DNA from: Craspedostauros australis
Taxonomy: Eukaryota
DNA: 43,671 nucleotides
Assembly: GCA_030167865.1 (NCBI GenBank)
Contig: JALAGF010004489.1
Span: forward strand, 1 to 43,671
Direction of reading: 5' to 3'
Part shown: in pieces, positions 4,714-43,250 of the stretch
How the letters are laid out: every line of letters starts with the position of its first letter
How positions within the stretch are numbered: the first letter of the stretch is position 1
Translations under genes and position numbers: made by a program
The notes under the pieces: generated by a model
Seen by the model: only the letters and a program-made list of their open reading frames with translations
Database searches by the model: none
Told to the model about the DNA's origin: nothing

Positions 4714-5757
4714 CTACCTCCACCAAACATTCACGCTGGTGCTCATGTCAATGGAACGAACTTGATGCCACCACTTGCTTGGGATGAAGATGATGTCGCC
4801 CGGATGCACGATGCACTCCTCGAACGGGAATGGGGCATGCTCGTGGAACAGCGGATACTGCTTCTCGTCGCTGGGTGAGATTTGTTCGACATTCACCGGC
4901 GACGTGTTGGATTGCTGCTGATCCGTTCCGGCGTAATGCCACATGGTCTTGTTTTGGATGGGGTCGGCGCACACGAAGCGCTTGCGGCCGCGGATCTGCA
5001 GCAGCAGATTGTCCAAAGGATCATGGTGCAGCGGCGACACGCAACCGCGCGGTCCCAACCACCACATCGTCTGGTACAGGCGACCGTTTCCGATGCCGAA
5101 GCTGTCGTTTGTGCAAAGCTGGGGCACGACGATGTCGTTGTGCAAGTAGTCGGGCAGCTCGTTCTGCGCCATGTACACGAGATGCTCCTTGGGAGGAAGA
5201 TCCTGACGCAGCAGCTGCATCAATTCCGATGCGTCGCCAGTTCGCGCCGCCGCCACAAGATCGTCGGTGGGGCCCGTCGCGCCGTATTGCTGTTCGAACA
5301 TTTCGAGATACAGAAAGTAGTCGGCGATGGGAATCTCTGGACGTTCGACACCCGGCGTGGTGTAGGAACCGCCGATTTCGATCTGTGCCGTTCCGTTCTT
5401 GTGTGCTTCTTTCAGATAGGAGGCCTCGCTCCATTTGCGAATGGCCGGCATGCCATTGGCGGCACCACGCAAGACGCATGGCCGTTTGGCGACGTAGTGT
5501 GGTCGCAGGGCATCGGCGATGCGTTGTTGCAGCGCGTTGGCGTCGTCGTCGTTATCGCCATGACTGTTGCGCACGTCCACCTCTGCCATTGGGGTTGTTG
5601 GGATTGCAGCAGATGATGCGCTTGTGGAAAGTCTGGCCTTGGACGACGATGATGGCGTCTGCAGGTCATGTTGGAGCGGGAGCCGTCGTTGATCTCGAAG
5701 CCTGATGAAGCTTCGCGTCAGCACACGGTATGAGCCGTGGATCGGAAGAGGCATCAT
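4714..5757 (-). CDS. JmjC-domain 2-oxoglutarate/Fe(II) oxygenase (JMJD5/KDM8-FIH-like, cupin_8 group)
   Basis: RPCVLRG...AIRKWS, YMAQ, WLGPRGCVSPLHHDPLDNLLLQIRGRKRF (HxD) and PGDIIFIPSKWWHQVRS...SVNVWW (distal His). Confidence 0.92.
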   Translation of the reverse strand: MMPLPIHGSYRVLTRSFIRLRDQRRLPLQHDLQTPSSSSKARLSTSASSAAIPTTPMAEVDVRNSHGDNDDDANALQQRIADALRPHYVAKRPCVLRGAANGMPAIRKWSEASYLKEAHKNGTAQIEIGGSYTTPGVERPEIPIADYFLYLEMFEQQYGATGPTDDLVAAARTGDASELMQLLRQDLPPKEHLVYMAQNELPDYLHNDIVVPQLCTNDSFGIGNGRLYQTMWWLGPRGCVSPLHHDPLDNLLLQIRGRKRFVCADPIQNKTMWHYAGTDQQQSNTSPVNVEQISPSDEKQYPLFHEHAPFPFEECIVHPGDIIFIPSKWWHQVRSIDMSTSVNVWWR

Positions 5758-6225: not shown

Positions 6226-7884
6226 TCACGGAGGCAACATGATGTGCTGCAACAAGATGGCCTTGTCGTGGATGATGCCGTTGGCGTCTTCATCGTCGAG
6301 GAAGTTGACCATGACGAAGGTGTTGCCGGTGCTAGATTTCCTCCCGGGCGGCTGCACCACCGTCGCTTGGTAGAATGCAGTTGTGTCTGGGTAGATGGCG
6401 AAGACGGCATCGCCGCGGGCCAGGTTCTTGAGATCGCCGAGGATGGCGACCTGCGGTTGCGGCAGCGAGAAGGCTGCGGATGGTAATCATCGTTTGCGTA
6501 TTTGCAGATGCGAGGGAAATCAGAGAATCATGATGGAACGGTGAGGCATGAGGGACAGAATGGCATGAACGCCTCGTGACGTCTGCAATCAATATCGTGT
6601 ACGCGGTGCTGTGCTGTGTTCCATGCATCAAACGAACGATGAACACGAAGCCGGATGTGTCTGCACCAGCGCGCGAACTTACTCTTGTTGCTTTCCACAT
6701 CTTCGTCGGACAGCTTGTACATTCCCGTGTGAGGATCGTAGGAGATGACCTTGGCCAGAATCCATTCCGACCCACCAGCCGTTGGTTGGATGGCGGCAAG
6801 ATCGTTGGGCTTAGCGGCGCCAGGGACCTGGAAATCGCCTGACCGCTGTGATCATTATCGACAGAAAATGCGGGGGGAAGCACAGTGGTTTTGCAGAGAG
6901 ACAAAGACAGCGTGTGCAAATAGATAGATAGATAGATGTCAGTGCATTTCGAATAGTTGCGCATGAGCGCAGTATTCATCTGCCTCATCACAACACAGTT
7001 GGCAATTGCACTCACTTTGCGCAAAGCGGTGTGGTGCTGCCATATTGCATTTAATGCAACAGCATGCAACAATTTATCGGCCTTCCATACAGTCACTGGC
7101 ACGGCGCGTACCTGCAGAACCTGCTCAAGATGCTTGAGATCTTCATCCAGCCGGTCACAAACGTCTTCGATCAAGGCGCAGCTCTGATCCGCGATTGCGC
7201 ATTTCTCAGCGGCGTACTGCTCCGCACTCTGGTGACATTCCCGTATCCGGCTGTACATGTCTTCGTTGTGAATGTATTCGGCCAATTCTTCTGTTGTGGG
7301 GACGACGAGATTGTCGTCTGCCGTTGCCTTGCTCTTGGCGCTGCCTCTTTTGCGTTTGGCAACGCGTATGCCCCTGTTGTCGACCACATCCAGACCCAGA
7401 ACCTTCTTTTCGGCGTCGTCAACATACTGCTGCTGCAGCTTCATCATTTCTTGGATCGTTTCGCTGCGGTTGCGATCGTGTTCGAATGATGCACGGAACA
7501 TGATGGTTGGATGTTTAATATAATAGAATGCATGCAATGTATGGGTGCAATGTATAGATGCAATGTATCGATGCAATGTGTGAGTGAGATCAGCTGAGCA
7601 CGCTCATTCGACACGAAATTCGAGTGAGAGGGCTGGAACCGTTCCTCATGATAGCCATCCGTGTCCTTTTGCGGACCTCCATCCGCCTCACATACCCCCA
7701 CACTACGGATAGCAACCTGTGGATCAAAAGAAGAGACAATGATCCGTGTTGTATCCCATCAAACAACTCACTTCGATGATCGATCGAGAGACTGGATGAG
7801 ATCCATATTGCGCTTGATTTCGTGCGGGATCGTGGAGATCTCCTCAACGAAGGACTCCAGGTAGGTTACATCGCTGCGCGTCAT
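6226..7884 (-). CDS. Spliced gene, 291 aa: ING N-terminal coiled-coil plus SGF29-type tandem Tudor. Exons 7884-7772, 7463-7112, 6845-6683, 6473-6226
   Basis: Three GT..AG introns (donors GTGAGT, GTACGC, GTAAGT; CAG acceptors) give an 876-nt in-frame CDS. TYLESFVEEISTIPHEIKRNMDLIQSLD and EKCAIADQSCALIEDVCDRLDEDL are ING-N-like. EWILAKVISYD...YKLSDED and VFAIYPDTTAFYQATV...VNFLDDED are SGF29-like. Confidence 0.88.
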
Positions 7885-15440: not shown

Positions 15441-17365
15441 ATGGCAACAGCAACAGCGGCAGCAAGGAACGTGCCGTTCCCAGCACCTCGGCGACGCAGC
15501 CTCCGCCCCAACAAGAACAATGTCGACGATGATGAGCAGAGCCTGGATCTTGCCGATCTGATCCAGTCGTCCAAACCACGCGTGCTGCCCCCCAGACGAA
15601 GGGATGCGGAGCCCCGCGTCCCGTTGGCATTGCAGGAGATCTTCGTGAGGGCGCAGCGTGGCGAGGAAGTCGAGGCGCCGCAGAAAAATCTCGGATCGAA
15701 GCTCTTTGTCAGATGCAAGACGTTGTTCGCGCCGCATAATCCGCTGTTGCAGACCATGCCCCCGTCCAAGGCGAAGCGCAAGATCTCCTTCCTGCGACGA
15801 TTCAGCAACAGCACGAAGGTTGGAATGCGCAGACCCGAGACGCCATCGCCGACGCAAAGTACGACGGAGCAGAGCGAGACGTTTGCGGAAGAGGCCGAAT
15901 CCGCGTCCATCCGAGCGATCATGGCGCAGAGGCGGTCGTCGCTTTTGGCGGTGAGTTTATTCTTACTTGGACGAGTGTTCTTACTTGGAAGAGTGTTCTT
16001 ACTTGGAGGTTTGTTATGTTGGTGAGGTTGATGTGATCATCCTCGTTCACGCAAGCACTTGCGATGTCCTCCTTGTGGAGATGCCATGGAAGCTGCCACA
16101 ATACAATACCTTTGCTTCAATCAAACACTTGCACTCACCAATGATCCTTGTTCTCTTCTTCACAATTTCCTGCGCAGCAGACTGCCGATAAATCGCATCA
16201 TATCATCGAAGAGGAGCAGGAGGTCATGTCACCACGGCAATTCATGGAGGAAGCTTGGGAAGAACGAGGGTACTACATGTACTCACCCACCAGCAATCCT
16301 GCAAGCCATGCCCCCAATGGAAGCACCAATACCACCCAAACTCAACAAGAGCAGCAACCTCGCGGACGACATGGTGGAAAGCGGACAAAGCGCCACTCCA
16401 ACAGCACGTCATCGAGATCCACTCAGACCACCTCCAGCACATCCGGCACGTTAGATTCAACCAACGCAACTGTTGTTGCGCGATCACCGACAGCCCTGGC
16501 TCGGTTCTTCACTATCGAAACGGGCTACTACAGCCAACCAACGCCATATCAACAGGCCAGCTACGGCCACGCCATGACCCGTGCCATCCGCCGCAACGAT
16601 GTCAATCTCGTGCGGCGATTTTGCGATGCCGGCTTATCTCCCAATCCGTGCAACCGGCATGGCGATTCCGTCGTCCACATGATCTGCCGCCGCAATCAGC
16701 TCGGCATGCTGCGCACGCTGCTGCGGTATGGTTGCCATCTGCAGTGTACCGACGATCTGGGCCGCACGCCGTTGCACGACGCCTGCTGGACGACGCAACC
16801 CAACTGGGAGCTCATCACGCTGTTGCTGCAGGTTGATATTCATGTCCTGCAGGCCATGGATTGTTACGGCAAGACGCCGTTGTGTTACGTGCCCGTAGTG
16901 GCGCATCGCGCATGGAACGCCTATCTGCAATCCAAGCTGGATCTGTTCTGGCCAACCGGTCATGTCCAGGGACCGCCCAAGCTCACCAAGCATCGCCCGC
17001 ATGCCTTTCCCATCGCGGATCCTTCGAACGCCGTGCCGTTGAACGTCGCGGCCTTCATCGCCAATGGCCAGATCGCCCCGGAAGATGCGAGTCTCTGCAT
17101 CCACGAAGATGGTGCTGGCGTGCATGGTGTTGTAGCTGGCGGTGCCAACCATGACGATCTCAATCACAATGGGAGGCACGATGATGATTCGTCCATATGC
17201 ACGGACAACTATGATGATGACGACGACGACATTGAGACGGATTCGGACATTGACTATGAAAGCGATGACTCCGACTTCCACCGGGAAGGTGACAATTTCA
17301 TCATCTCATTGCACGGCAACCGAAATGCCTTCTCCGCGATGATGCCATCCGCTGTTAATGTCTAG
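15441..17365 (+). CDS. Ankyrin-repeat protein (~565 aa), two exons 15441-15950 and 16178(or 16181)-17365
   Basis: GCG|GTGAGT donor at 15951 and pyrimidine tract + CAGCAG acceptor, both phase 0; ANK motifs NPCNRHGDSVVHMICRRN, DDLGRTPLHDACW, DCYGKTPLCY; acidic tail. Ankyrin exon is secure, exon 1 join is inferred. Confidence 0.8.
15958..16008. repeat. 18-bp tandem repeat x3 (core TTCTTACTTGGA) inside the predicted intron
   Basis: ttcttacttggacgagtg ttcttacttggaagagtg ttcttacttgga. Confidence 0.85.
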
Positions 17366-25900: not shown

Positions 25901-25974
25901 CCGAGACTCGAGGTGGCCATAGCATCCACAAGCGCAGCATTCACAGAGAGGTGGACAGGAGCAACTTGAACAAC

Positions 25975-28900
25975 ATGAACAACATGCAATCGCAAGGCCA
26001 GCAACAACAACAACAACAACAACGAGAAGAACAGTACGATGATGAAATACTGAGCCTTCAGGGTTCCAACAGGCAGTTGACAACGGCGGCGAGAACAGGC
26101 GATGTTGGACAGATGCTGGGTACTTCGCAGGCGATCCTGGGTGCCGGGATCGGTGACCGCGGTCCCGCGGGCGCAGCCTACCTGGGGGAGAGCATCGTAG
26201 AGGACGGGAGCAGCCATCGGGGGGCGATGTCCGGCACCAACTCCACGCCCACCAGGATCCGCACCACTGATTCTGTCCTGGGGGGCTCCACCAGCACCAA
26301 CCAGGTCGAATGGGGCAGACGCGTGGACAAGCGCGTGCGCCGCATGCGCGAGTACCTCCTCTTCCTCCTCATCGGCGCCACGCTATTCATCAGTCTCACC
26401 ATCTACTACACCATCTTCTTCAACCAGGTCAACCAGTTCGAGGATCAGTTCACGAGCATCTCCGTTCAGTACCTCGATCGGATACAGGAGCAGTTCGAGT
26501 CCACCATCACCGTCCTCACGACCATCGGTGAGAGCCACACCATCACAACGCCAACCGCCAACCTTAACGGAGACGTGGACGTGGACGTGGACGTGAGCAG
26601 CACACAGACGGACCAGCAGCGGGACAGGCGGCTCGATTCTACTCTCAAGGCCTCGAATACATACCCCCAGGACTGGCCATTCCGCATTGTCCCAGGCCAG
26701 GACTGGCCCGTCATTGCTGCATCCACTCTCTCCATTGGCGACTTTGGTTGGACAGCGATTGTGCCCGTGATTCCCAACAATGACACTGTGCGAGCACAGT
26801 ACGAGGCATACGTGGAGGAGACCAAGTCTGCGTGGATGCCGCCCACGCAAGCTTACAACCAGAGGATAATCCGACAGTGGAGACAGACATTCCTGGGGAA
26901 CGAGGACATCCCCGAAGGACAACAGCAGCCTCCCAACTTCTCGAACGCCATCTTCAATTCGAAAACCTTGACGGATCAGCAGGCCTCCAGGAACTCCACC
27001 GTCAACGCCATCTTCGAACACGAGCCAGACGATCCAGACTACTACCGAGTCCAGCCACCGCAGACTGGTCCCTACTACCCCATCCACCAGAGCTACCCGC
27101 TCGCGCCCATCAACCTCAACTACAACCTCATGTCTCACGAAGTCTACGGCAAGGAGCTGCAGGTCGCCTTGGAGCTCTTCAAGCGTCAGCAGCACATCTA
27201 CACCATGTACGTTGGCACGTTGACCGAGGCGACGGGTGTCGGTCCAAGGGACAGGCCCAACGCAAAGGGGGAGACGAGGAAGAATTTGAACTACCAAGGC
27301 CTCAAGCTCAGGCAGCCGGCCAGCATGTTCTTTGTACCCATCAAGGCCGGACTAAGGACGGCGACTGAGGGAATCCTGGACTCCGATTCGACCGATGATG
27401 ATGATGATGGTGAGACCACACCGGATGCCATCTGGATTGCCAAATTCCGATGGATCCCCATGCTGCAACCGCGAAGCTTCTCGGAGAAGGCCGAAGGCAT
27501 GCAGATTGTTCTGGTGCACAACTGTCGGGGGTACGAGACGGACAGCGAATCGGGAAAGATGAAGGAGGTCGTCGAGCAGCTCAGCACGACCACGTTCCAA
27601 GTCAACGAGGATCTGGGAGTGGAATGGTTGGGTTTTGGAGATTTGCACAAATCGACGCTCAATTACCTCGAGGAATCCGCAGTTCTGCGTCAGCCCATCC
27701 TGCGACGTACACCGGACGCCTTCCGAACCCTCAGCTCCACCATGGAGGGCTGCGCACAGTTCGAGTACGAGCTGCGGCTGTACCCATCGCAGAAGATGAA
27801 GGACAACTTCTTCAACTTGGCGCCGATCGGGTACACCGTGCTCGTGCTGGTCGTATTTGCTGTCACGTCCCTGATCTTTATCGGGTACGACTACTACGTG
27901 GATCGACGGCAGCGGCTGGTCATGCAATCCGCCGAGCGACACCACGCCATCGTCTCATCGCTGTTCCCAAAACGAATCCGGGAACGTCTCTTCAAGTCCG
28001 TCGATGTAGAAGTCACATCCAGCAGACGCCGTGCGCAGTCGGGGGAAGCCATCCCAGCGGAGGTGACGGACAACTCAATCCATGGTCGCATGCTGACGCA
28101 ACGTGCCAGACTCCGCAGTGCCCTGGCCGCGGCCGCTCCAACTTTGACCGCGCCTCCAAAGGGGAACGAAAAGTCGGAAAGCAACGACAGCGAAGGTCAC
28201 TCCTTCTACAACGACGCCTCGCTTTCGGGCGGTAACCACGACGACAAGGACGGCGATACGGGGACCCACTCCGAGGATGGGGCAAGCAAACACGCGATGA
28301 TGTCAAACGCATCCACGCACAGCAGACTGCTGAGGCCCGGCCGCAGCCTCGTCAAGTCGTTCCTGGGAGGAGGCAACAAGGACAGCACGTGGGCGAAGGG
28401 GGCCTCTTCGCACCAGCGCGTCACCTTCCTTGGAAGTGGTATGGGCGCCTCAACGCACAGCCGACGATCGGGCAGCGGCAGTACTGCCATGGCACAGTCC
28501 AGCGCCATCGCAGATCTCTTCACCCAGACCACGGTTCTGTTCGCAGATATCGACGGGTTCACGGCGTGGTCATCGAGCCGCGAACCAACGCAGGTGTTCA
28601 TCTTGCTCGAGACGGTCTACGGCGAATTCGACACGCTGGCTGACAAACGCGATGTCTTCAAGGTGGAAACCATCGGTGACTCCTACGTCGCCGTCACTGG
28701 ACTCCCCGATCCGCAGCCCAATCACGCCGTCATCATGACACGTTTCGCTTACGAGATGCAGGTCCAAATGACGTCGGTCACGCGCGAGCTTGTGGTGGAG
28801 CTGGGACCCGACACGGCCGATCTGTCCCTGCGCGTTGGATTGCATTCAGGCCCTGTCATCGCCGGCGTCCTGCGCGGACAGAAGTCGCGATTCCAGCTGT

Positions 28901-31097
28901 TCGGTGACACGGTCAACACGGCAGCACGTATGGAAAGCACGGGCAAATCGCATCACATCCAATGCTCCAAGTCCACAGCCGAAGCGTTGGAAGACAGCGG
29001 CAAGTCGCAGTGGCTGATCCCGCGTGAGGATATGGTCATGGCCAAAGGCAAGGGTGCCATGCAAACGTACGTCCATGCATGCATGTTGTGATGTCCTGTA
29101 TATGTATTGAGTGTCTTACTTGTTGCTGTACTTGTTGCTGGATGCATGTTGTTCAAAATCGACGCCGCTTGCTGCTTGCTGCTTGCTGCTTGCTGGTCAT
29201 TGTGTGCAAAGACTGAGTTTGCAATGACACGGAGCACGATGTGCCATAGGCCACATCACATACCGCACCGTCTCGTATCGCACGACATCATGCTCAACAC
29301 GGCACGAACACTCCGTTTATTCCTTCATCTTTCGCTGCGTACCATACATACTCGCATTCATGCTTGCCACTTTCGTGCCACACAATCTCCGTTTGATATC
29401 CCACACACTACTGCAGCTTCTGGGTGGATCCAAGAGGATACAGGAGGAAGCGCAGCAAACGCTCGATGAAAAAGCCGTCACCGCAGCATTCGGGGCAAAA
29501 CAGCACCGATGGAAACACCGCCGCCACCGACACAGATCGCAGGGATTCCATCCGATCCAGCAACAGCACGGGAGATGTCGAAACCACCGCATCTCCGCCT
29601 TCTTTCGCGGATGGGGCCTCAATTCAAAGCCAGAGGAGCAGCAATGCCGATACGGACCGCGACGATGCAGATGATGACAAGTTCATGCAGGACGACGATG
29701 GCAGTTCTCGTGGCGGCATGAGCTCATCGCGAGACAAGTACGGACGCAGGAAGAAGGCATCGCGTTCGGCGGACTTTGAACGTCATCTGGATTGGAATGT
29801 CGACCTTCTATCGCGACTGCTCAAGTCAGTCATCGCTCGCCAGAAGAACCGTGGCAGCTTCCAGGTGAAGAATTCGAACAAGCCGCAAGTGAAGAAGCTC
29901 TTCAACCTGTCCATGAGCACGCACAACTCGGAGGCGTCGATCCTTGAGGACGACATCCACGAATTCTCCTTGAGGTTACCAAGAGAGGAGTACGCAGAAT
30001 GTATCCACCTCCCGCAGTACCACCACAAGAAACCCGCCAAGGGCCAGCAGCAGGACATCAGCGCCGACAGCATCCAGATCGACAAGGTGGTTCAGGATGA
30101 GCTCCGCGATTACGTCACCAAGATCGCTTGCTCGTATCACAGCAATCCGTTCCACAACTACGACCACGCCACCCATGTCACCATGTCCGCCAACAAGATC
30201 TTGAACCGCGTGGTTGCGGCCGAAGACATGAACATCAACATGAAGCACCACCGACGGCTTTCGTTGGATGCGGTGCGGCACGACTACACGTACGGGATCA
30301 CCTCCGATCCCTTGACTCACTTTGCGTGCGTGTTTTCCGCCATGATCCATGACGTCGACCATCCTGGCGTCTCTAACGCGCAGCTCGTCAAGGAGGAAGA
30401 CGAGATGGCGATGTTGTACGGGCAGAAGAGCGTGGCAGAGCAAAACTCCGTCGATCTGGCATGGAATCTGCTCATGGACCCCGCCTACCGCAATCTCCGC
30501 AACGCCATGTTCATCGGCGAGGAGGAGAGGAAGCGATTCCGCCAGCTGCTGGTGAATTCTGTGATGGCCACGGACATCTTCGATCCTGAACTCGTCGCCA
30601 AGCGCAATCGACGTTGGGAGAAAGCGTTCGCATCATCGTCAGGCTCCACCGTATCATCGTCATCGAATGACGAAGACCACAAGGGCGAGGAACATCAATC
30701 CAGCGCGGATCTGCGTGCGACGATTGTGATCGAGCACATCATCCAGGCAGCCGATGTCAGCCACACCATGCAGCATTGGCACGTCTACCAGAAATGGAAC
30801 AGGCGCTTGTTCAACGAGATGTACCGCGCATACAAGACGGGACGTCTGGAGAATGACCCGTCGAAGGGCTGGTACAAGGGCGAGCTGTGGTTCTACGACA
30901 ACTACATCATCCCGCTGGCAAAGAAGCTGAAGGACTGCGGCGTGTTCGGCGTCTCCAGCGACGAGTTCCTGAACTACGCCATGATGAACCGTTCGGAATG
31001 GGAGGTGAAGGGAGAGCAGATCGTGGCCGATCTGTTGGCAAGCTTCGAGGACAACGCATTGAAGCGAACCTCATCCCAAGACACCATCGATGCGTGA
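25975..31097 (+). CDS. Receptor-type class III nucleotidyl (probably guanylyl) cyclase fused to a class I cyclic-nucleotide phosphodiesterase, ~1590 aa; exons 25975-29066 and 29417-31097
   Basis: Two TM helices flank a ~470-aa luminal domain. Cyclase motifs VLFADIDGFT, KVETIGDSYV, GLHSGPV, RFQLFGDTVNTAARMES. Intron 29067-29416 (GTACGT..CTGCAG) restores KGKGAMQTFWV. PDE motifs PFHNYDHATHV, HDVDHPGVSN, ATD, AADVSH. Confidence 0.93.
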
Positions 31098-36174: not shown

Positions 36175-37313
36175 ATGCTGTCCAACCTCTGCAGACAGTT
36201 CACAACGGCGGCATCGCTGTCGGCGCGATCTTGCGCAGGCCCGCGAACAGCCGTCCCTCGTCTTCCTGCAAGCAGCGTTCAGAGTATGGCTGCGAGACGC
36301 CTTGCGCTGCCATCCACCGCCACCACGTCTCTTGCTGCATTCTCGACGGCAGCAGCGTCGCAGGCCAATACGGAATACGTCGAAGTGCTCAAACTCAACA
36401 TGCTGGAGAATAATCCCGGAGCAAGAAGGCAGGTATGTAGTACATACACACATGTATAACATACACACATGTATAACATGCACATATGTATGTGCACATG
36501 CACCAGTGATTTCGCTACGTCATGTTACGGCATGGAATAATCCAGCATGTCTGCATTACTCGCACTCCATAGTCGTACTCAACTCCTTCAACCATACTCC
36601 CTCCTCAATCTCACACAACCACGATGACATGGACGACACAGAAAAAGAGAGTCGGCCGCGGCGTCGGTTCCGGGCGCGGCAAGACCAGCGGACGCGGTCA
36701 CAAGGGCCAAAAGGCGCGAGCCGGTGGCGGCGTCAAACTGGGCTTCGAGGGAGGTCAGACCAAGCTGTACAAGCGCTTGCCCAAACGCGGTTTCACCAAC
36801 AAGCGCTTCGCCACGCCCATGGTCCCGCTCAACGTCGGTAAGATCCAGGACTTTATCGACATGGGACGCTTCCCGCACGTCGCTGCCGACACGGCGGCCG
36901 ACGCCATGCCGATCCTCACATTGAAAGACCTCGTCGACGCCGGCATCACGAATCACACCACCGTGAAGCACGGCATCAAGCTGCTGTCGCATGGCACAGA
37001 ACGTCTGCGCACACCCATCAAGCTGCATATCAGCCGCGCATCGAAGGAGGCCATTCAGGCCGTCGAGAATGTCGGCGGGCAGGTCACGACGGTGCATTAC
37101 AATCGGTTGGCCTTGCGCGTTCTGCTGAAGCCGCACAAGTTTGGTGTCCATCCGCCCAAGATGGCGCGACCGCCGCCCAAGCTGCAACCGTACTACACGA
37201 ACTGGGATGACTGTCGTGGCTACCTCAGCGTGCAGTCGCAGATGCGGGATCTGTTGGCGCAGCGGCCCGAATTGGAGGAAGCATTTCAGAAGGCGCTCGG
37301 CAAGACGAAGTGA
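36175..37313 (+). CDS. MRPL15: Ribosomal protein uL15, bacterial type with N-terminal presequence (mitochondrial); exons 36175-36432 and 36642-37313
   Basis: [39 protein letters not shown]...[38 protein letters not shown]; phase-0 GTATGT..ACAG intron; Arg/Ser/Ala-rich leader without acidic residues. Confidence 0.93.
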
Positions 37314-37768
37314 ATGGTGTGGCATCGTATCATGACTCTCCGGAGAGTGTCTGGCAAAGATACCAGACTCTTGAAAGCATAATATCGTAGTTTGCTGTTG
37401 CGATGATATCATATGAGCCAATGCGAGTCATTAGAGAGCAGTTATCAACAGATAATTACGCTGGGGTATGCCTATGCCATTCGAAACTCTCGCAGTGAAG
37501 TGGCGATGTCATCAGATGTTGAGGATAGCGTGGAACACCAGTACTCGTTGAGTATTGTGTAGAATTCTGTTCGTTCTTTAGCCTCCCTATTTTGTTTTTG
37601 GCGCGATGAACAGATCCCGAGAAAGCGAAAAGCGGATTGTGACCATCCCCGATGACTTCCCTCCACTGTGTACACGCAAGAACGCAAGAACGCAAGAACA
37701 CACGCAATCCTCACAACAACACAATCTTACATTGTCATACACTACCGCACAACAGACACACGACCACC

Positions 37769-38011
37769 ATGGGCAACAATGCTTCCTCCGCACTGGGCGC
37801 CGCCGCTGCCTCGAACCAGCTCAAGGGCGTGCTGAAGGACGCCGAGGATGGAACCAAGGGTGGCAATCCGGAGAACGAAAGGAAGATCCAGGAGATCCAA
37901 GGCCGCAACAAGACCAACATCCAGGACTACGAGCAGAAGAAGGCAGCGCATGCCGCCAAGAAGAAGAAGCTGTCGGAAGCTTGGGCGGCCAATCGCAAGG
38001 CTGCCAACTGA
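37769..38011 (+). CDS. Small 80-aa helical protein, predicted N-myristoylated, complexin-like pattern
   Basis: ACCACC-ATG-G context, strong GC3 codon bias, MGNNAS start, charged helical C-terminal half. Confidence 0.75.
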   Translation: MGNNASSALGAAAASNQLKGVLKDAEDGTKGGNPENERKIQEIQGRNKTNIQDYEQKKAAHAAKKKKLSEAWAANRKAAN

Positions 38012-38460
38012 GGTGGTTTTGGGGCAGAGTTGGTTGCTCAATACGATCGTGGAAGGAAGGAAGCATGCGTGCATGCATTCCATTGAGAAGAGATCCATAA
38101 CAACATGGGAAGAACAAGCAGATTCAAGGGATTTCTCAAGAGAGAGAAGAAAGAAGGAAGGAAGGATGCGGACATGGACAAAGCAGCAAGTCACATGGTG
38201 ACTATTGCATTCTTCAGCTGGCTGGCTGGAGGGATGAATGGAAAGTGTCTGCATCCAACAGTGCTCCTCGTCTATTTTCAGCCGCAAACACCATTCCCCA
38301 ACTCTCCAAACGCCCACACCAAGAGCACTGCAGCAATAACACAATACAATACTATCACAACAGAACTAATTTCATATTTGGACAGAGCATCATGGAACTA
38401 TAATACTGCTCTAGAGTACTCTCATGTGTCTTCGCACCCATGTATTACATTCATCACTGC

Positions 38461-41400
38461 TCAAGCAAAGTGCGAACTGAACACCTCCAGATCTTGCAGT
38501 TCCTCGATGAACGTCCTGCCGTTGCTGCCGGGATTGCCAAGACCGAAGCTCAGCGGCGCCCCCGTCGTTGTGTCGATTGCCAGCACCGTGTACCGCAATT
38601 CACACGTCAGCGTCGCCGTGCCCTCCATGCGTTGCGGCAGTGCCGATAGCACGCACCAAGCCGCTCCACCTGCCTTGTGCGGTAGAACACGGATGGGCAC
38701 GCGGATGGCTGGCTGGATGGCCTCCTCCGAACTCTCGGCGACGACGAACGCGACGTTGCCGAGGGCGCGTCCATCGACGTTAGCGTTGTTCGTGACGATG
38801 GCCTGGATGACGACGTGCCTTGGGAAGAAGTGCTTCACAATGGTGACGTCCGGGAAGGTGGATGAGGCAGACGATGATGGACGAGCCTTGATGGGTTTCG
38901 TCGAATGGATGGGGTCGCCCAGATTCAATGACTTCAATTGAGGCACGACGTGCAAGCTCGCCTGCGCCTTGAGCTGTGCATCCGTCAGCTTCTCCTTCAA
39001 CGCCACGTACTTGGATCGCAGCAAGGATGACACCACCGTCAATCGCCGCACCTGCGACTCGCTGTCGACAAGAGCAGGGATCAGGAATGGCCGAGCGACG
39101 GCCGACACGGGCACGTTCTTTGGCAGCAACCTCAGCGCTGCTGCACGGTCGATGGCACCGCGACGCAGCGCCAGCACCTGAATGGCGGCATTCGTTCCGC
39201 GTTTGGAGTCCGAGTCGGATTGCAGCGCCACACGCACGAGCGGCAGATACGCGCATCCTTCGTCGCCAGGGAGGGTCGCGGACATCCTCGTGTCGTGCGG
39301 ATCGTCATTCCAGGCGCCACCGCGGGCATTCATGCGCGCGCGTTGGCGTTCTCGCTTGGCTTGCAACCGTTCGTGACGCAAATCACAGTACTCCAACGCC
39401 AAATCGAGGCTCTTGCATTCACCGTACAGAATCTGCAAGGCATCCTCGTGCCGTCCCATCCTCCCCAGCACCAGCGCCTGCTCTTGCAGGAAGGACTTGG
39501 GTAGTGCAGATAGCAGGCGTTCGGAACGGATCTTCGTCAGGGGCCATCGCAAGAAGACTCGCAGCTTGCAACGATACAGTGTCCCGAGCACGGTGTCGGT
39601 CTCATCCGTGTTGTCGTCGCCACGTTCCGCAATGACGCCCTCCAGAAGCAGGTAGCACAGCTCGTCGTGGTAGTTCGCAATATGATCTTCCATTTCCGGA
39701 TCCGGCGCCAATCGGTTAAACGCATCCTCCTCATCGTCGTCGGCGCGTCCTGTGGAGATACCAATGGCAGCCTCGAGGTAGGTGACCGCCAAGGCACGGC
39801 CGGACTCGAGTGGCAGCGCGATGGATTCACCATTCTCATTGACGTCATCCGCCAAAACATCCGATTCCTTCTGATCGTACGCGACGGTCGGTTGTATTTT
39901 CTGCAGCAGCTTGATGACCTCCGCTGGATACGTGGGATGCGACAACGGATCATCACGTGCCAGCATGGCCCTCCACTGTTTGGATGTTTGCGGCAGCAGA
40001 GATGTGAAGACTCCGAGACCCAATCGCGGATTCTCTTGCAGCAACCGATGTGTTGCAATGGATTTGAGCACCAGCGAGCAGGCCGACGGCTTGCCCGTGC
40101 TCCACAACTCGGATAGATGAGTGGCCGTGTAGGAGGCGTACTTGATGGGCGACCACGTTGTGACGCCGCTGTTGCCGGTCGATGGCGGTGACGCCGACGA
40201 CGATGGGACGCGGGCCGTCTTCTGGCTCTGCGGCAGCCGCTCGTACAGCACCTGGATGGCACGTTCGTGCTGTCCGCTGGCGCGAAGGAGCCACACGGCC
40301 GATTCGATGAGGTCCATGCTGAGTTGGGCGTTGTTGGAACTGAGCAAGGAGAAGGATTGCGACGCTTCGCGCAGCAGCCGATCTGCGACCTGACTGCAGA
40401 CCTGCACCGCCGATGCAGGCAGATCGTCCGAACCATCGCCGACGGGGTCATTGAGCACGATGGTGCCGACGCGGTTGGAACACATCTTTGCTGCTTTGTT
40501 GGCCAAGGCTGGCTTGGGTGGTGCTAGCTGCGTGCACACTAGACACAACAGAGCTGTGCCGGTGACCAACGACGTGGGGTTGGCCACAGATGCAACGGTT
40601 GGCACAACCGATTGATCCATCGCGCTGGCGTTGACAGATCTGTTTGCGGAGAAGGAGGCCTCGATGGTGCGACCACCATGCGGGGAAGTATCCGACACGG
40701 CCACGGGCCATGATCCATCGTCACCATCCGCACTCTCCCATTCCAAGAGTCCCAAGATGGCCTGCAGGTACTGCCGCAGCAGATCCCGCGATTGAGGTGT
40801 CGGTTCCGGACCCACATACGATGTTGCCGTGAAGCTGGCCTGCAAGGCATCCGCCAGCTCGCCGCGCGGGAACCCGTTGGCCCCAAATGCATCGATGGCA
40901 TGGCGCATGAGACGATCCGCCAGATCCTGGGTCGTGTCCGGCAGCGCGCGCAGAGACTTCGCCTGGCACGAGTAGGACATGGTCACGAGCAGGGAATCGA
41001 GCTGGGATTCGTTGGCGACCACTGGATGGGACTTGTTCATCGCAACCGGATTGTTGTTATTGTTGGCGAACTTCATGGTTGCTGCCGACATCATCTGCCC
41101 CAAGTTCATGGAACGCAGGCCGAAGAAATCGTTGGGCCGCGTTCCGACCTCGACGGTGCGCAGAGGAATGGCAACGCAGGATGGAGAACGGATGCTGACG
41201 AGTCCGTCGCTCGTGAGCACAGCGATGAGGTACGGTCCCGCCAGCGCCGCCGCCAGGATGGGACTCGCCACCGTGACCATGCCGTTGCGCGGCTTCGATG
41301 CCTCCAGGAGGGGGTGGGTGGAACCGTAGGAGTGGTGACGATGCTGATGGGCGGAGGCATCGTGGCGCAGATCCACCACGGCGCATTCGCGGCCGTTGGC

Positions 41401-42720
41401 GCAGAAGATGGTGGACCATTCATCGCGGGTCGATGCGTAGCGCGGCGATGAGGGTCGCTTCGTGTTGCCATCGGCGTCGTGTCTCACCGGCGGTCGCGGC
41501 AGATCCAGCAGGATGACAGGATGCACCTGCGACGATTGGCCGAACGACAGCATCTTGACGCATTCGGCTGAGGAGGAGAGTCTGCCACGGCCGGATGCGG
41601 AACCACCCGCGGCCCGATCGGCGTCGTCGTCCGTGCCGTTGGCATGCTCCTGCTTCGGCTTGCTGGCGACGGCGTAGACCACGTTGCCGACGGTGACGAC
41701 TGCCACGCGCCCCTGCGCCGTCAACTCCAACGCCGTCTGGCCGCCACGCGCTCCCGGTGCAGGCAGCGTGATGTGCGTGAAGTCCCAGCGCTGCAGCTGC
41801 TTGCCGAATCGGCCGCGCGTCTTCTTCTTGCGCGAGTTTGAAATGGAGATGGTTCCCGAGCCTCCGCGCACCATGGTGGAAGCGTTGCTGCTGGTGCCAT
41901 CGTCGGACAAGGCGGGGTGGTAGGCGTCCGTGAAGACCTGCGTGAGGCTGCGACCGGCCGCCAGGAGGAAGCCCGTTTGCGGCGAGAAGGTGGCCGATGT
42001 GACGCGGCGATTCGAGGTTTCCGACAGCGCCAGCTTGCGGAAGGTGCCATGCTGCAGAGTGATGAGGTAGGGCAGGTAAGCGCCGGGCGTGGAGCTGTTG
42101 GCGTGATCGCCCTTGTTGTCGTCCACCATGACCAGGAACGTGGGCGGCAACGCAGGAGCGGACAGCGCGGCATCCTGCGGCGCCGAGGCTGTGAGGGTGT
42201 CGTGGATGATCCCAACCACCGGACCGGGCAAGCTGGCCCCCGAGTCCACGGGAAGGTACATGCGCGGCAGACTGGCGGGCGGACGGCCCGTGGGCGTGAT
42301 GCCGAGCGGCTGCTGCGACTTGCGCGCCATGCTGCTGCCGCCGGCCTCTCCCATGGTTCCCGAGATGGAGTCCGATGCGAAGGAGCCCGTGGTTCCCCCG
42401 CCGCCTCCGCCGCCCAGGCCTCCGCGAGTGGAGGTGGGCGATCGTCCGGGTGCTGCGGAACCCGCCCTCGTTGGCGCGTAGGCCCGGTAGTGCAGCGTGC
42501 CCTGCTCAGTGCCGAAGATGAGGCCGTGCGCCTTGATGGTGGCGGCGTCCGCGCCGGTGGTGATGCTGGAGGGCACCGAATCGAACGGGTTGATGCTTGC
42601 GCCGGAGCTGCCACCACCTGACGCACCGTCCAGGCTGGGATTCATGGAGGCCTGCCAGACGCTGAAGCTCCGCGGGGTCACCCCGTTGGCGCGCAGTTCC
42701 CACGCTGCTTGCAAGGACAT
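38461..42720 (-). CDS. Vps39/TGFBRAP1(Vps3)-like HOPS/CORVET-type protein (~1419 aa) with a C-terminal gamma-COP appendage-like domain
   Basis: Beta-rich N-terminus (LIFGTEQGTLHY), CHCR-like LLSALPKSFLQEQALVLGRMGRHEDALQIL...ALEYC, Vps39_2-like IDRAAALRLLPKNVPVSAV..FL; tail LGDPIHST...VKHFFPRHVVIQ..VTN...CELRYTV..IDTTTG...ELQDLEV; first ATG at 42720. Confidence 0.85.
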   Translation of the reverse strand: MSLQAAWELRANGVTPRSFSVWQASMNPSLDGASGGGSSGASINPFDSVPSSITTGADAATIKAHGLIFGTEQGTLHYRAYAPTRAGSAAPGRSPTSTRGGLGGGGGGGTTGSFASDSISGTMGEAGGSSMARKSQQPLGITPTGRPPASLPRMYLPVDSGASLPGPVVGIIHDTLTASAPQDAALSAPALPPTFLVMVDDNKGDHANSSTPGAYLPYLITLQHGTFRKLALSETSNRRVTSATFSPQTGFLLAAGRSLTQVFTDAYHPALSDDGTSSNASTMVRGGSGTISISNSRKKKTRGRFGKQLQRWDFTHITLPAPGARGGQTALELTAQGRVAVVTVGNVVYAVASKPKQEHANGTDDDADRAAGGSASGRGRLSSSAECVKMLSFGQSSQVHPVILLDLPRPPVRHDADGNTKRPSSPRYASTRDEWSTIFCANGRECAVVDLRHDASAHQHRHHSYGSTHPLLEASKPRNGMVTVASPILAAALAGPYLIAVLTSDGLVSIRSPSCVAIPLRTVEVGTRPNDFFGLRSMNLGQMMSAATMKFANNNNNPVAMNKSHPVVANESQLDSLLVTMSYSCQAKSLRALPDTTQDLADRLMRHAIDAFGANGFPRGELADALQASFTATSYVGPEPTPQSRDLLRQYLQAILGLLEWESADGDDGSWPVAVSDTSPHGGRTIEASFSANRSVNASAMDQSVVPTVASVANPTSLVTGTALLCLVCTQLAPPKPALANKAAKMCSNRVGTIVLNDPVGDGSDDLPASAVQVCSQVADRLLREASQSFSLLSSNNAQLSMDLIESAVWLLRASGQHERAIQVLYERLPQSQKTARVPSSSASPPSTGNSGVTTWSPIKYASYTATHLSELWSTGKPSACSLVLKSIATHRLLQENPRLGLGVFTSLLPQTSKQWRAMLARDDPLSHPTYPAEVIKLLQKIQPTVAYDQKESDVLADDVNENGESIALPLESGRALAVTYLEAAIGISTGRADDDEEDAFNRLAPDPEMEDHIANYHDELCYLLLEGVIAERGDDNTDETDTVLGTLYRCKLRVFLRWPLTKIRSERLLSALPKSFLQEQALVLGRMGRHEDALQILYGECKSLDLALEYCDLRHERLQAKRERQRARMNARGGAWNDDPHDTRMSATLPGDEGCAYLPLVRVALQSDSDSKRGTNAAIQVLALRRGAIDRAAALRLLPKNVPVSAVARPFLIPALVDSESQVRRLTVVSSLLRSKYVALKEKLTDAQLKAQASLHVVPQLKSLNLGDPIHSTKPIKARPSSSASSTFPDVTIVKHFFPRHVVIQAIVTNNANVDGRALGNVAFVVAESSEEAIQPAIRVPIRVLPHKAGGAAWCVLSALPQRMEGTATLTCELRYTVLAIDTTTGAPLSFGLGNPGSNGRTFIEELQDLEVFSSHFA

Positions 42721-43250
42721 CGTTGCGACTACCGTGGAGGATAGGAGAGTAGAGTAGATTAGATTAGAGCACAATGCTTCCTGCTTTTCTTACGTATACA
42801 ACTATATGCTCTTATGGCTGGACAAGAGTGTCGGAGATGATGGGGCAGATGAGCAATGTTGTTGCATGAGCTGCGGAGAAGACCATGGCCGAGGAAGATA
42901 CCGTCGCCTCCTCTTCGATCCTCATCTTGGTGTTCTCCCAAGAGACGAGGTTCCGCCACGGCGGATCGTGTGTTTCTTGCGCGCGATCTGGGACACCCGG
43001 CAAAATGGGTCGAATTAGTCTATCTTGGAGGCTACTGACCCAGCCAATCAAAACTCGTTGTTTTTGCGATGACAAAAGATCCCACAAGAGGAATGTTCTC
43101 GAATCAAATTTTCGTTCTCAGGAACTCTTTGAAGGTCATAGCTTCCAGTTTTATTTATGGGTATTTCGTGGAGAAACTCCGAAAATGACTCTGCAATACT
43201 GTGTCTTGATTTAATCCCGACCAGTCGTGCGAAAACCGAACCCTTGATTT

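Follow-up and report, generated by a model that had tools for sequence, protein, structure and literature searches.

The homotypic fusion and protein sorting complex (HOPS) and the class C core vacuole/endosome tether (CORVET) belong to the best-conserved fusion machines of eukaryotes. Vps39 (VPS39 in human, Vam6 in yeast) is described as binding Rab7/Ypt7 via its N-terminal region, and the long C-terminal helix of the yeast protein interlocks with the long helix and the RING of Vps11 and is in contact with the propeller of Vps18 as well (Shvarev et al. 2022, PMC9592082). In human VPS39 the C-terminal region is required for VPS11 binding, and the zinc finger is a short single-zinc module whose role is unproven (Butt 2020, PMC7384125). 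The C-terminal zinc and RING modules of HOPS and CORVET serve as assembly hubs (Shvarev 2022; Butt 2020). Vps3 (TGFBRAP1) has the same overall architecture as Vps39 and occupies the same place on Vps11 (Klinger 2013, PMC3785458; Butt 2020), the two being ancient paralogues, both very divergent (Klinger 2013). In the coat protein complex I (COPI), the γ-COP subunit (COPG1/Sec21) carries an appendage of two subdomains: the base of the β-sandwich contacts a propeller of β'-COP, the second one, and the platform is described as the exposed part, within reach of ArfGAP and similar partners (Dodonova et al. 2017, PMC5482573). Here we describe a gene in which pieces of these two systems are joined. 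It lies on the reverse strand of contig JALAGF010004489.1 (GenBank assembly GCA_030167865.1) of the diatom Craspedostauros australis, of which positions 1 to 43,671 were analysed (hereafter the window). The body of the encoded protein belongs, on profile comparison, to the Vps39/Vps3 family, and its tail is a γ-COP β-sandwich standing where the zinc finger would be.

A γ-COP β-sandwich at the C-terminus

The tail was compared with the Pfam family COP-gamma_platf (PF08752), as had been proposed in a preliminary description of this DNA. In the whole protein the family matches residues 1271-1407 (38554-38964) with 46.9 bits (E 4.1e-12) against a cutoff of 25, and when the last 179 residues are searched alone the score is 52.2 bits (E 9.8e-14). 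PF08752 carries the name 'platform' but models the Ig-like sandwich; the same domain is called 'appendage Ig-like subdomain' in UniRef. A phmmer search of PDB sequences with the tail returned the γ-COP appendage (1r4x_A, E 5.4e-7; 1pzd_A, 7.7e-7) and γ-COP within the coat (5a1u_E, 8.7e-5), all three matches falling in the N-terminal part of the appendage. The sequence match to the γ-COP sandwich is far beyond chance.

Structural comparison, which had likewise been put forward at the outset in the form of AlphaFold and Foldseek, points the same way. The AlphaFold2 model of the tail, built from an alignment of 21 rows, is all-beta, with a predicted local distance difference test score (pLDDT) of 88.7 and a predicted template modelling score (pTM) of 0.84. 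Foldseek places 1pzd first (E 6.9e-10, TMq 0.67, root-mean-square deviation (rmsd) 2.8, 28% identity), followed by 1r4x and then by three γ-COP chains from coat structures. VIA-align, which is independent of Foldseek, also ranks the γ-COP appendage first, aligning 147 residues of 1r4x_A with a Z score of 16.9 and an rmsd of 2.8 (residues 436-600 of a model of the last 600 residues, described below, on chain residues 616-764). Over 147-160 positions the linker and sandwich are homologous to those of the γ-COP appendage (1pzd/1r4x), with 27-28% identity and an rmsd of 2.8 Å. The tail is the sandwich subdomain of the γ-COP appendage, and it is specifically of γ-COP descent.

It is not, however, the whole 'COPI ear' of the preliminary description, in which the sandwich was correctly recognized and the missing half was not. 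Neither the platform subdomain (PF16381) nor the Adaptin_N trunk was found at E<=10 in a Pfam scan of the whole protein, and the alignment to 1r4x stops at chain residue 764, so that the protein ends where the platform would begin. A true γ-COP (P0258), recovered by the search that gave the relatives, has all three domains. Lacking both trunk and platform, the fused protein is not a coatomer subunit.

Among diatoms the tail is also the best-conserved region of the protein: its mean pairwise identity is 0.65, while the solenoid reaches 0.61, the middle part 0.51 and the N-terminus 0.45. A full-length profile of 14 diatom homologues (A1) gave a single chance-level row when searched against the PDB, and no γ-COP chain at E<=1; the great length of the profile and its many low-complexity stretches probably account for this missed match.

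A body of the Vps39 family

The A1 profile was aligned by hhalign with a profile of nine canonical proteins carrying CNH, Vps39_1 and zf-Vps39_C (A3). The two match with a probability of 99.96 and an E value of 9.3e-39 over 352 columns, which set residues 823-1269 of the window protein on residues 477-869 of P0260, whose zinc finger occupies residues 869-907. The C-terminal solenoid is thus homologous to that of Vps39/Vam6 up to its last long helix, and this comparison argues for the Vps39/TGFBRAP1-like family named in the preliminary description. The alignment to the canonical proteins breaks off at the start of their zinc finger, and the γ-COP homology sets in at residue 1271; the sandwich, of about 168 residues, therefore replaces the zinc finger. 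A Pfam scan found no match to zf-Vps39_C (PF10367) at E<=10 in the window protein, nor any in the fused relatives scanned, in keeping with the initial observation that a zinc-finger-like C-terminal segment is absent. The AlphaFold2 model of the last 600 residues (pLDDT 86.1, pTM 0.71) shows the solenoid, then a 48-residue helix (1223-1270) and then the sandwich.

Domain-level signals in the solenoid are faint. The comparison with Clathrin- and Vps39_2-type profiles suggested beforehand has its counterpart in the family-level hhalign match; Pfam gave no match to Vps39_1 or Clathrin in the window protein, and none to CNH or Vps39_1 in the 14 diatom homologues. Foldseek, given the 600-residue model, returned no Vps39, the tail dominating the search. 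Membership of the Vps41 family was considered and rejected: TPR_Vps41 (PF23556) reaches 23.9 bits, below its cutoff of 27, and covers just 42 residues (1093-1134), a match that we read as shared CHCR-like helices. Some fused orthologues from outside the diatoms are less diverged. CNH is found in P0160 (55.3 bits) and, above its Pfam cutoff, in the Ectocarpus protein (40.6 bits), the latter having Vps39_1 as well (29.5 bits against a cutoff of 22). Compared with typical canonical forms the window protein is about 350-550 residues longer, and CNH is undetectable in the N-terminal half of the diatom proteins.

A single gene

Body and tail lie in one uninterrupted open reading frame (ORF) of 1437 codons, at 38461..42774 on the reverse strand according to the ORF list and its translation. 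Its upstream end, at 42774, is a TTG, and the probable initiating methionine is the one at 42720: the consensus of the 14 diatom homologues opens at the residue aligned with Met19, with 'MSL..W.LR'. Every peptide string quoted in the preliminary description is found in this translation, and the tail, placed there at 38461-38950, was located correctly to within about 17 nt at its upper end. The features of the gene are collected in Table 1.

Table 1. Features of the fused gene, in window coordinates
Feature	Position	Strand	Basis and remarks
Probable coding sequence, Met19 to stop, 1419 aa	38461..42720	-	ORF list, translation, diatom consensus start
N-terminal half, residues 19-822	40309..42720	-	Fast-evolving, with low-complexity inserts; no Pfam family matched; presumed CNH-type beta-propeller and first part of the solenoid
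Alpha-solenoid, residues 823-1269	38968..40308	-	hhalign to the C-terminal half of the Vps39 family (Vps39_1/CHCR-like start through former 'Vps39_2' helices)
Long C-terminal alpha-helix, about 48 residues, 1223-1270	38965..39108	-	DSSP of the 600-residue model (helix 386-433); directly precedes the tail
γ-COP beta-sandwich tail, residues 1270-1437	38464..38967	-	PF08752, phmmer against PDB, AlphaFold2, Foldseek, VIA-align; no platform subdomain
Stop codon	38461..38463	-	Sits where the γ-COP platform would start; the 1r4x alignment runs up to the final residue of the model, at chain residue 764

It might be asked whether the fusion is an artefact, due to a chimeric assembly, to a gene model that reads through, or to an Ig-like resemblance arising by chance. 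One contig from a public sequencing run (the kind of run, RNA or DNA, being a guess) is identical to the window over about 37734-38935, which covers the last ~470 coding bases and ~730 bases past the stop codon. This sole such contig ends about 30 nt short of the junction and does not bridge body and tail, so that it speaks neither way. Against an artefact stand the continuous frame and the base composition, the GC content and the GC content at third codon positions (GC3) being 0.607 and 0.75 in the tail and 0.604 and 0.723 in the preceding solenoid. The two regions are alike, and so nothing here hints at a chimeric join. The same junction, moreover, recurs in all of the best 120 of 179 homologues and, outside the diatoms, in six or more named genera, complete transcriptome-derived proteins hold both parts, and the matches of the tail in sequence and structure are specific to γ-COP. 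An artefact is effectively refuted: body and tail form a real single gene, conserved in relatives that include transcriptome-derived proteins.

Distribution among relatives

A search with the last 438 residues returned 179 proteins at E<=1e-3 among 8000 scored candidates, of which the best 120 were listed. PF08752 is precomputed in 119 of these 120 and a family hidden Markov model (HMM) finds the tail in all of them, its end lying a median of one residue short of the C-terminus. All matches among the best 120 that bear an organism name come from diatoms. The matches listed include Nitzschia, Fragilariopsis, Pseudo-nitzschia, Fistulifera, Cyclotella, Conticribra, Thalassiosira, Epithemia and Mayamaea, two Bacillariaceae records and Seminavis, the last judged from the 'Sro' gene prefix. 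Of 14 diatom homologues that are long or carry a name, 13 score above the PF08752 cutoff and one scores 24.9. Some of the matches are transcriptome-derived proteins marked complete, and the two of these that were scanned, P0041 and P0036, hold both parts.

The architecture extends beyond the diatoms. When 1.84 billion representatives were searched exhaustively by phmmer, with the last 600 residues as query, only 225 matches came back at E<=1e-3; for the remoter of these, Pfam domains and source names place the fused form in Triparma columacea (P0277), Aureoumbra lagunensis (P0178), Ectocarpus siliculosus (P0302, 1234 aa; PF08752 at 87.2 bits beside its CNH and Vps39_1), Pylaiella littoralis (P0303), Discosporangium mesarthrocarpum (P0167, 737 residues), Phaeothamnion confervicola (P0301, partial) and Chrysoparadoxa australica (P0173). 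Several metagenome proteins are also fused, including P0160 (PF08752 at 124 bits). In all non-diatom fused proteins the junction falls at the same alignment column, with 146-178 residues following it, or 93 in the partial Phaeothamnion protein. The survey of stramenopiles proposed in the preliminary description thus found the fusion in named ochrophytes, whereas the tail was not found in the oomycete relatives recovered: Phytophthora kernoviae P0255 has Vps39_1 and the zinc finger, and Aphanomyces euteiches P0242 has neither the tail nor a detectable zinc finger. No zinc-finger form from a named ochrophyte was returned by searches that were partly word-based and drew on best-match lists, a negative that is weak alone. 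As judged from these sequences, the swap of zinc finger for sandwich is common to diatoms, pelagophytes, brown algae and the genera Triparma, Phaeothamnion and Chrysoparadoxa.

A further fused record, P0268, bears the label of the foraminifer Bolivina argentea in EukProt. It clusters at 90% identity with an NCBI-contig protein (P0164) and lies, in the tree described below, near the Chrysoparadoxa and brown-algal rows and away from the diatoms. It may reflect contamination or a wider range.

A tree was inferred from 386 columns of the solenoid, the tail being excluded, for 42 rows out of about 300 proteins (quick IQ-TREE search, LG+C20). The rows comprise seven diatoms, all named non-diatom fused proteins except Discosporangium P0167, long matches from the exhaustive phmmer search, canonical zinc-finger matches, and one protein from a plant, one from a fungus and two from oomycetes; fragments shorter than about 700 residues and the many remaining diatom rows were not included, and the tree is unrooted, with no outgroup and no labelled Vps3/TGFBRAP1. 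A branch with 100% support in the Shimodaira-Hasegawa-like approximate likelihood ratio test (SH-aLRT) separates 10 rows from 32, all fused proteins being among the 32. The 10 fall into one set with Malassezia Vam6p, Rhododendron, P0260, P0208 and P0311 and a second with P0228, Aphanomyces, Phytophthora, P0223 and P0231. The unrooted tree is thus a three-way split between a plant/fungal, an oomycete and a fused group, and would therefore allow the fused clade to be what corresponds, in ochrophytes, to the oomycete protein.

Within the 32-row side, 19 proteins have the tail (counting P0150 and P0267, in which the family HMM finds it diverged), one has a zinc finger and 12 have neither. Four of these 12 (P0184, P0169, P0144 and P0248) end 0-6 residues past the junction; they look like truncated models because of their placement, three of the four nesting among diatom or Triparma rows and P0184 lying beside the Bolivina-labelled row. 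The sole zinc-finger protein on this side, P0236 (1060 aa, encoded on a contig of 381 kb), has brown-algal fused proteins as its best relatives (E 1.6e-114, eight matches) and continues for about 80 residues beyond the zinc finger. Its zinc finger would fit the earlier state, before the swap, with the proviso that the tree has no outgroup and that P0236 sits on a long branch.

Proposed role in HOPS

The gene is, on balance, probably the diatom copy of an ochrophyte-wide Vps39 (Vam6) orthologue, a HOPS subunit in which the sandwich would, by analogy, be a module for docking, set at the hub of Vps11 and Vps18. By comparison with yeast and human HOPS, the N-terminal part would bind a Rab7-type GTPase on the membrane of the vacuole or lysosome, making the protein the Rab-binding subunit at one end of the complex, and the long C-terminal helix would fix it onto Vps11 in the class C core. 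The helix at 1223-1270 would correspond by position to the Vps11-interlocking helix of yeast Vps39. Lying directly behind it, the sandwich would be expected at the hub formed by the Vps11 helix and RING and the Vps18 β-propeller. Docking on a propeller is proposed because the sandwich follows the hub helix and because its partner in COPI is the β'-COP propeller; most likely the sandwich would dock on the propeller of a neighbouring core subunit, taking the zinc finger's place and any stabilising role that the finger had. It would not be expected to act as an ArfGAP-recruiting ear.

The points that weigh against such a reading are given, in this and the following three paragraphs, beside the evidence that they limit. 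Among 48,161 representative chains, the helical part of the 600-residue model is matched best, in VIA-align, by yeast Vps39 in HOPS (7zu0_E, residues 701-988 of the chain; rmsd 8.6 over 266 aligned residues), with clathrin heavy chain (Z 7.6) and a chain of CORVET (Z 7.5) behind it; the Z score for yeast Vps39 is 10.0, however, and helical-repeat matches under about Z 13 can be generic according to the search tool. At the N-terminus of the window protein no CNH or propeller signal is seen by Pfam or by hmmsearch and hhalign. The diatom N-terminus, compared with the CNH region of the non-diatom fused orthologues, gives an E value of 0.089 by hhalign and nothing significant by hmmsearch, and the Atlas lead for the N-terminal half is CNH at 0.88, under the 0.9 level that counts. 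A propeller in the window protein, and hence Rab binding, is read across from the orthologues only.

Among the relatives, eight metagenomic proteins (P0188, P0192, P0198, P0205, P0210, P0262, P0244 and P0227) form one clade with 99% SH-aLRT and end 0-35 residues past the junction, with neither tail nor zinc finger. Either this is a real loss, or gene calling stopped short at an intron lying between the domains; the metagenome DNA recovered for this clade consists of one contig (L001), which ends at residue 860 of 896, short of the gene end. If the clade is real, the tail would be dispensable in some lineage.

The docking role of the sandwich is itself drawn by analogy only, and the tail may instead have a recruiting role. 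After γ-COP, the next structural matches are the γ-adaptin ear and the GAE domain of GGA (about 1e-4 in Foldseek, Z 9.1-9.2 in VIA-align), at 8-16% identity to the tail and with scores far below those of γ-COP. These are stand-alone β-sandwich ears without a platform, and they bind accessory-protein motifs. The tail might in the same way recruit motif-bearing accessory factors, or COPI via the β'-COP propeller, to an endolysosomal tether, and so form a lineage-specific link between coat and tether, much as the preliminary description had supposed in connecting the protein to coat accessory factors. That the tail is the most conserved region, as a binding surface would be, is in keeping with this, as is the native COPI partner of the sandwich, the second β'-COP propeller (Dodonova 2017). 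The subdomain accessible to ArfGAP is absent, however, and the location right behind the helix that interlocks with the core in yeast favours a role within the complex. Since only the propeller-contacting half of the appendage has been kept and the platform is gone, a link to coat accessory factors is not the first expectation, and we hold the recruiting ear to be possible but doubtful.

The assignment to Vps39 rather than to Vps3 bears equally on the HOPS reading. In the inventory of Woo et al. 2015 (PMC4501334; supplementary file 4, part 18), 'Vps39 HOPS' is represented by Esi0091_0086 (1235 aa) for Ectocarpus, 46588 (1226 aa) for P. tricornutum and 24171 (1462 aa) for T. pseudonana; the same table has no 'Vps3 CORVET' row for these three, Pythium ultimum having both, and records Vps41 in all three ochrophytes and Vps8 in Ectocarpus. 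Mainly because of this table, the searches made here being weak alone, the fused protein is probably the only Vps39/Vps3-family protein of these algae. The identifiers of Woo et al. are tied to the fused proteins by length alone (Ectocarpus P0302 has 1234 aa, against 1235), and the human reverse match, NP_056104.2, stands in rows filed under Vps3 as well (C. reinhardtii, C. velia, P. ultimum and V. brassicaformis), so that it does not discriminate Vps39 from Vps3.

The fused protein might descend from, or double as, the Vps3/TGFBRAP1 subunit of CORVET on Rab5-type early endosomes, alone or as a member of both complexes. One member may serve both, for the table of Woo et al. has a Vps8 and no Vps3 row for Ectocarpus. 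A branch with 100% SH-aLRT parts the fused clade from fungal Vam6p and from the plant and oomycete proteins, which would agree with such a descent, as would the ancient origin and strong divergence of the two paralogues (Klinger 2013); equally, the three-way unrooted split fits ochrophytes as the sister of the oomycete group. A profile of ten non-diatom fused proteins (A4), searched against the PDB, matches the γ-COP appendage (1pzd, E 1.4e-28), the N-terminal domain of C. thermophilum Vps39 (7zty, 2.4e-22) and yeast Vam6 (7zu0_E, 9.7e-10), and no Vps3 chain at E<=10, the CORVET entry 8qx8 being present in the library. Woo et al., too, file the length-matched proteins under Vps39. From these comparisons Vps39 descent appears likelier than Vps3 descent, which we consider unlikely; the ancestry is not thereby settled, yeast Vps3 being very divergent.

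Alternatively, the protein could be an extra paralogue that works outside HOPS and CORVET, on a route specific to ochrophytes such as traffic around the complex plastid. The named fused taxa are all photosynthetic ochrophytes, the oomycete relatives found lack the tail, and the N-terminal half of the diatom proteins has diverged strongly. The inventory of Woo et al., on the other hand, gives one Vps39-family protein per ochrophyte, no zinc-finger form came from the named ochrophytes in the searches described above, and the part of the solenoid that binds Vps11 elsewhere is well conserved, which together leave this explanation very improbable.

A bolder extension of the HOPS reading may be noted. 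The sole Vps39/Vps3-type subunit of the ochrophyte ancestor would have taken up a propeller-gripping sandwich, and the tail, still binding β'-COP or a propeller of COPI type, would allow the tether to capture COPI-coated carriers. We regard this as quite unlikely. If true, it would mean that traffic derived from the Golgi or the endoplasmic reticulum is wired to a vacuolar or plastid-associated compartment, an arrangement known in no other eukaryote, and the swap would coincide in time with the acquisition of the complex plastid.

Novelty and significance

Full-text searches, most subscription journals lying outside their scope, found no paper on a Vps39-type protein with a γ-COP domain, and the exchange of zinc finger for sandwich appears not to have been described in print. 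To that extent the statement in the preliminary description that no such architecture had been described holds good. The domain has nonetheless been named automatically in public records (as 'Coatomer gamma subunit appendage Ig-like subdomain domain-containing protein' in UniRef, in NCBI names and in precomputed Pfam), and proteins of matching length are tabulated as Vps39 by Woo et al.

A whole major algal lineage, which includes diatoms, brown algae and pelagophytes, has exchanged a hub module of HOPS/CORVET for a piece of the COPI coat, and has done so in what is apparently its sole Vps39-family protein, with the tail kept under strong constraint. The swap may be looked upon as a natural domain-swap experiment on how the complex holds Vps39, and as an example of module exchange between two protocoatomer-type machineries. 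The fusion is a possible marker character for Ochrophyta. For comparative genomics it means that a score of 'Vps39 present' in these algae refers to a non-canonical Vps39. The swap is accessible to tests in transformable diatoms.

Other genes in the window

Five further ORFs of 366-1084 aa match nothing in Pfam at E<=0.001. A 229-aa ORF with a Ribosomal_L27A/L15 domain (36624-37313, +; 57 bits) lies on the strand opposite to the Vps39-type gene, some 1.1 kb downstream of that gene's 3' end. On the reverse strand are an ORF with a Cupin_8/JmjC domain (4714-5757; 130 bits) and one with an ING N-terminal domain (6332-7576; 26 bits), and on the forward strand one with ankyrin repeats (16148-17365; 39 bits). 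At 25951-31097 (+) two adjacent ORFs of the same strand stand about 330 nt apart, the first (1046 aa) ending in an adenylate/guanylate cyclase catalytic domain (161 bits) and the second (557 aa) having a 3'5'-cyclic nucleotide phosphodiesterase domain (107 bits). Fusions of cyclase and phosphodiesterase occur in diatoms, and the two ORFs may be one gene with an intron.

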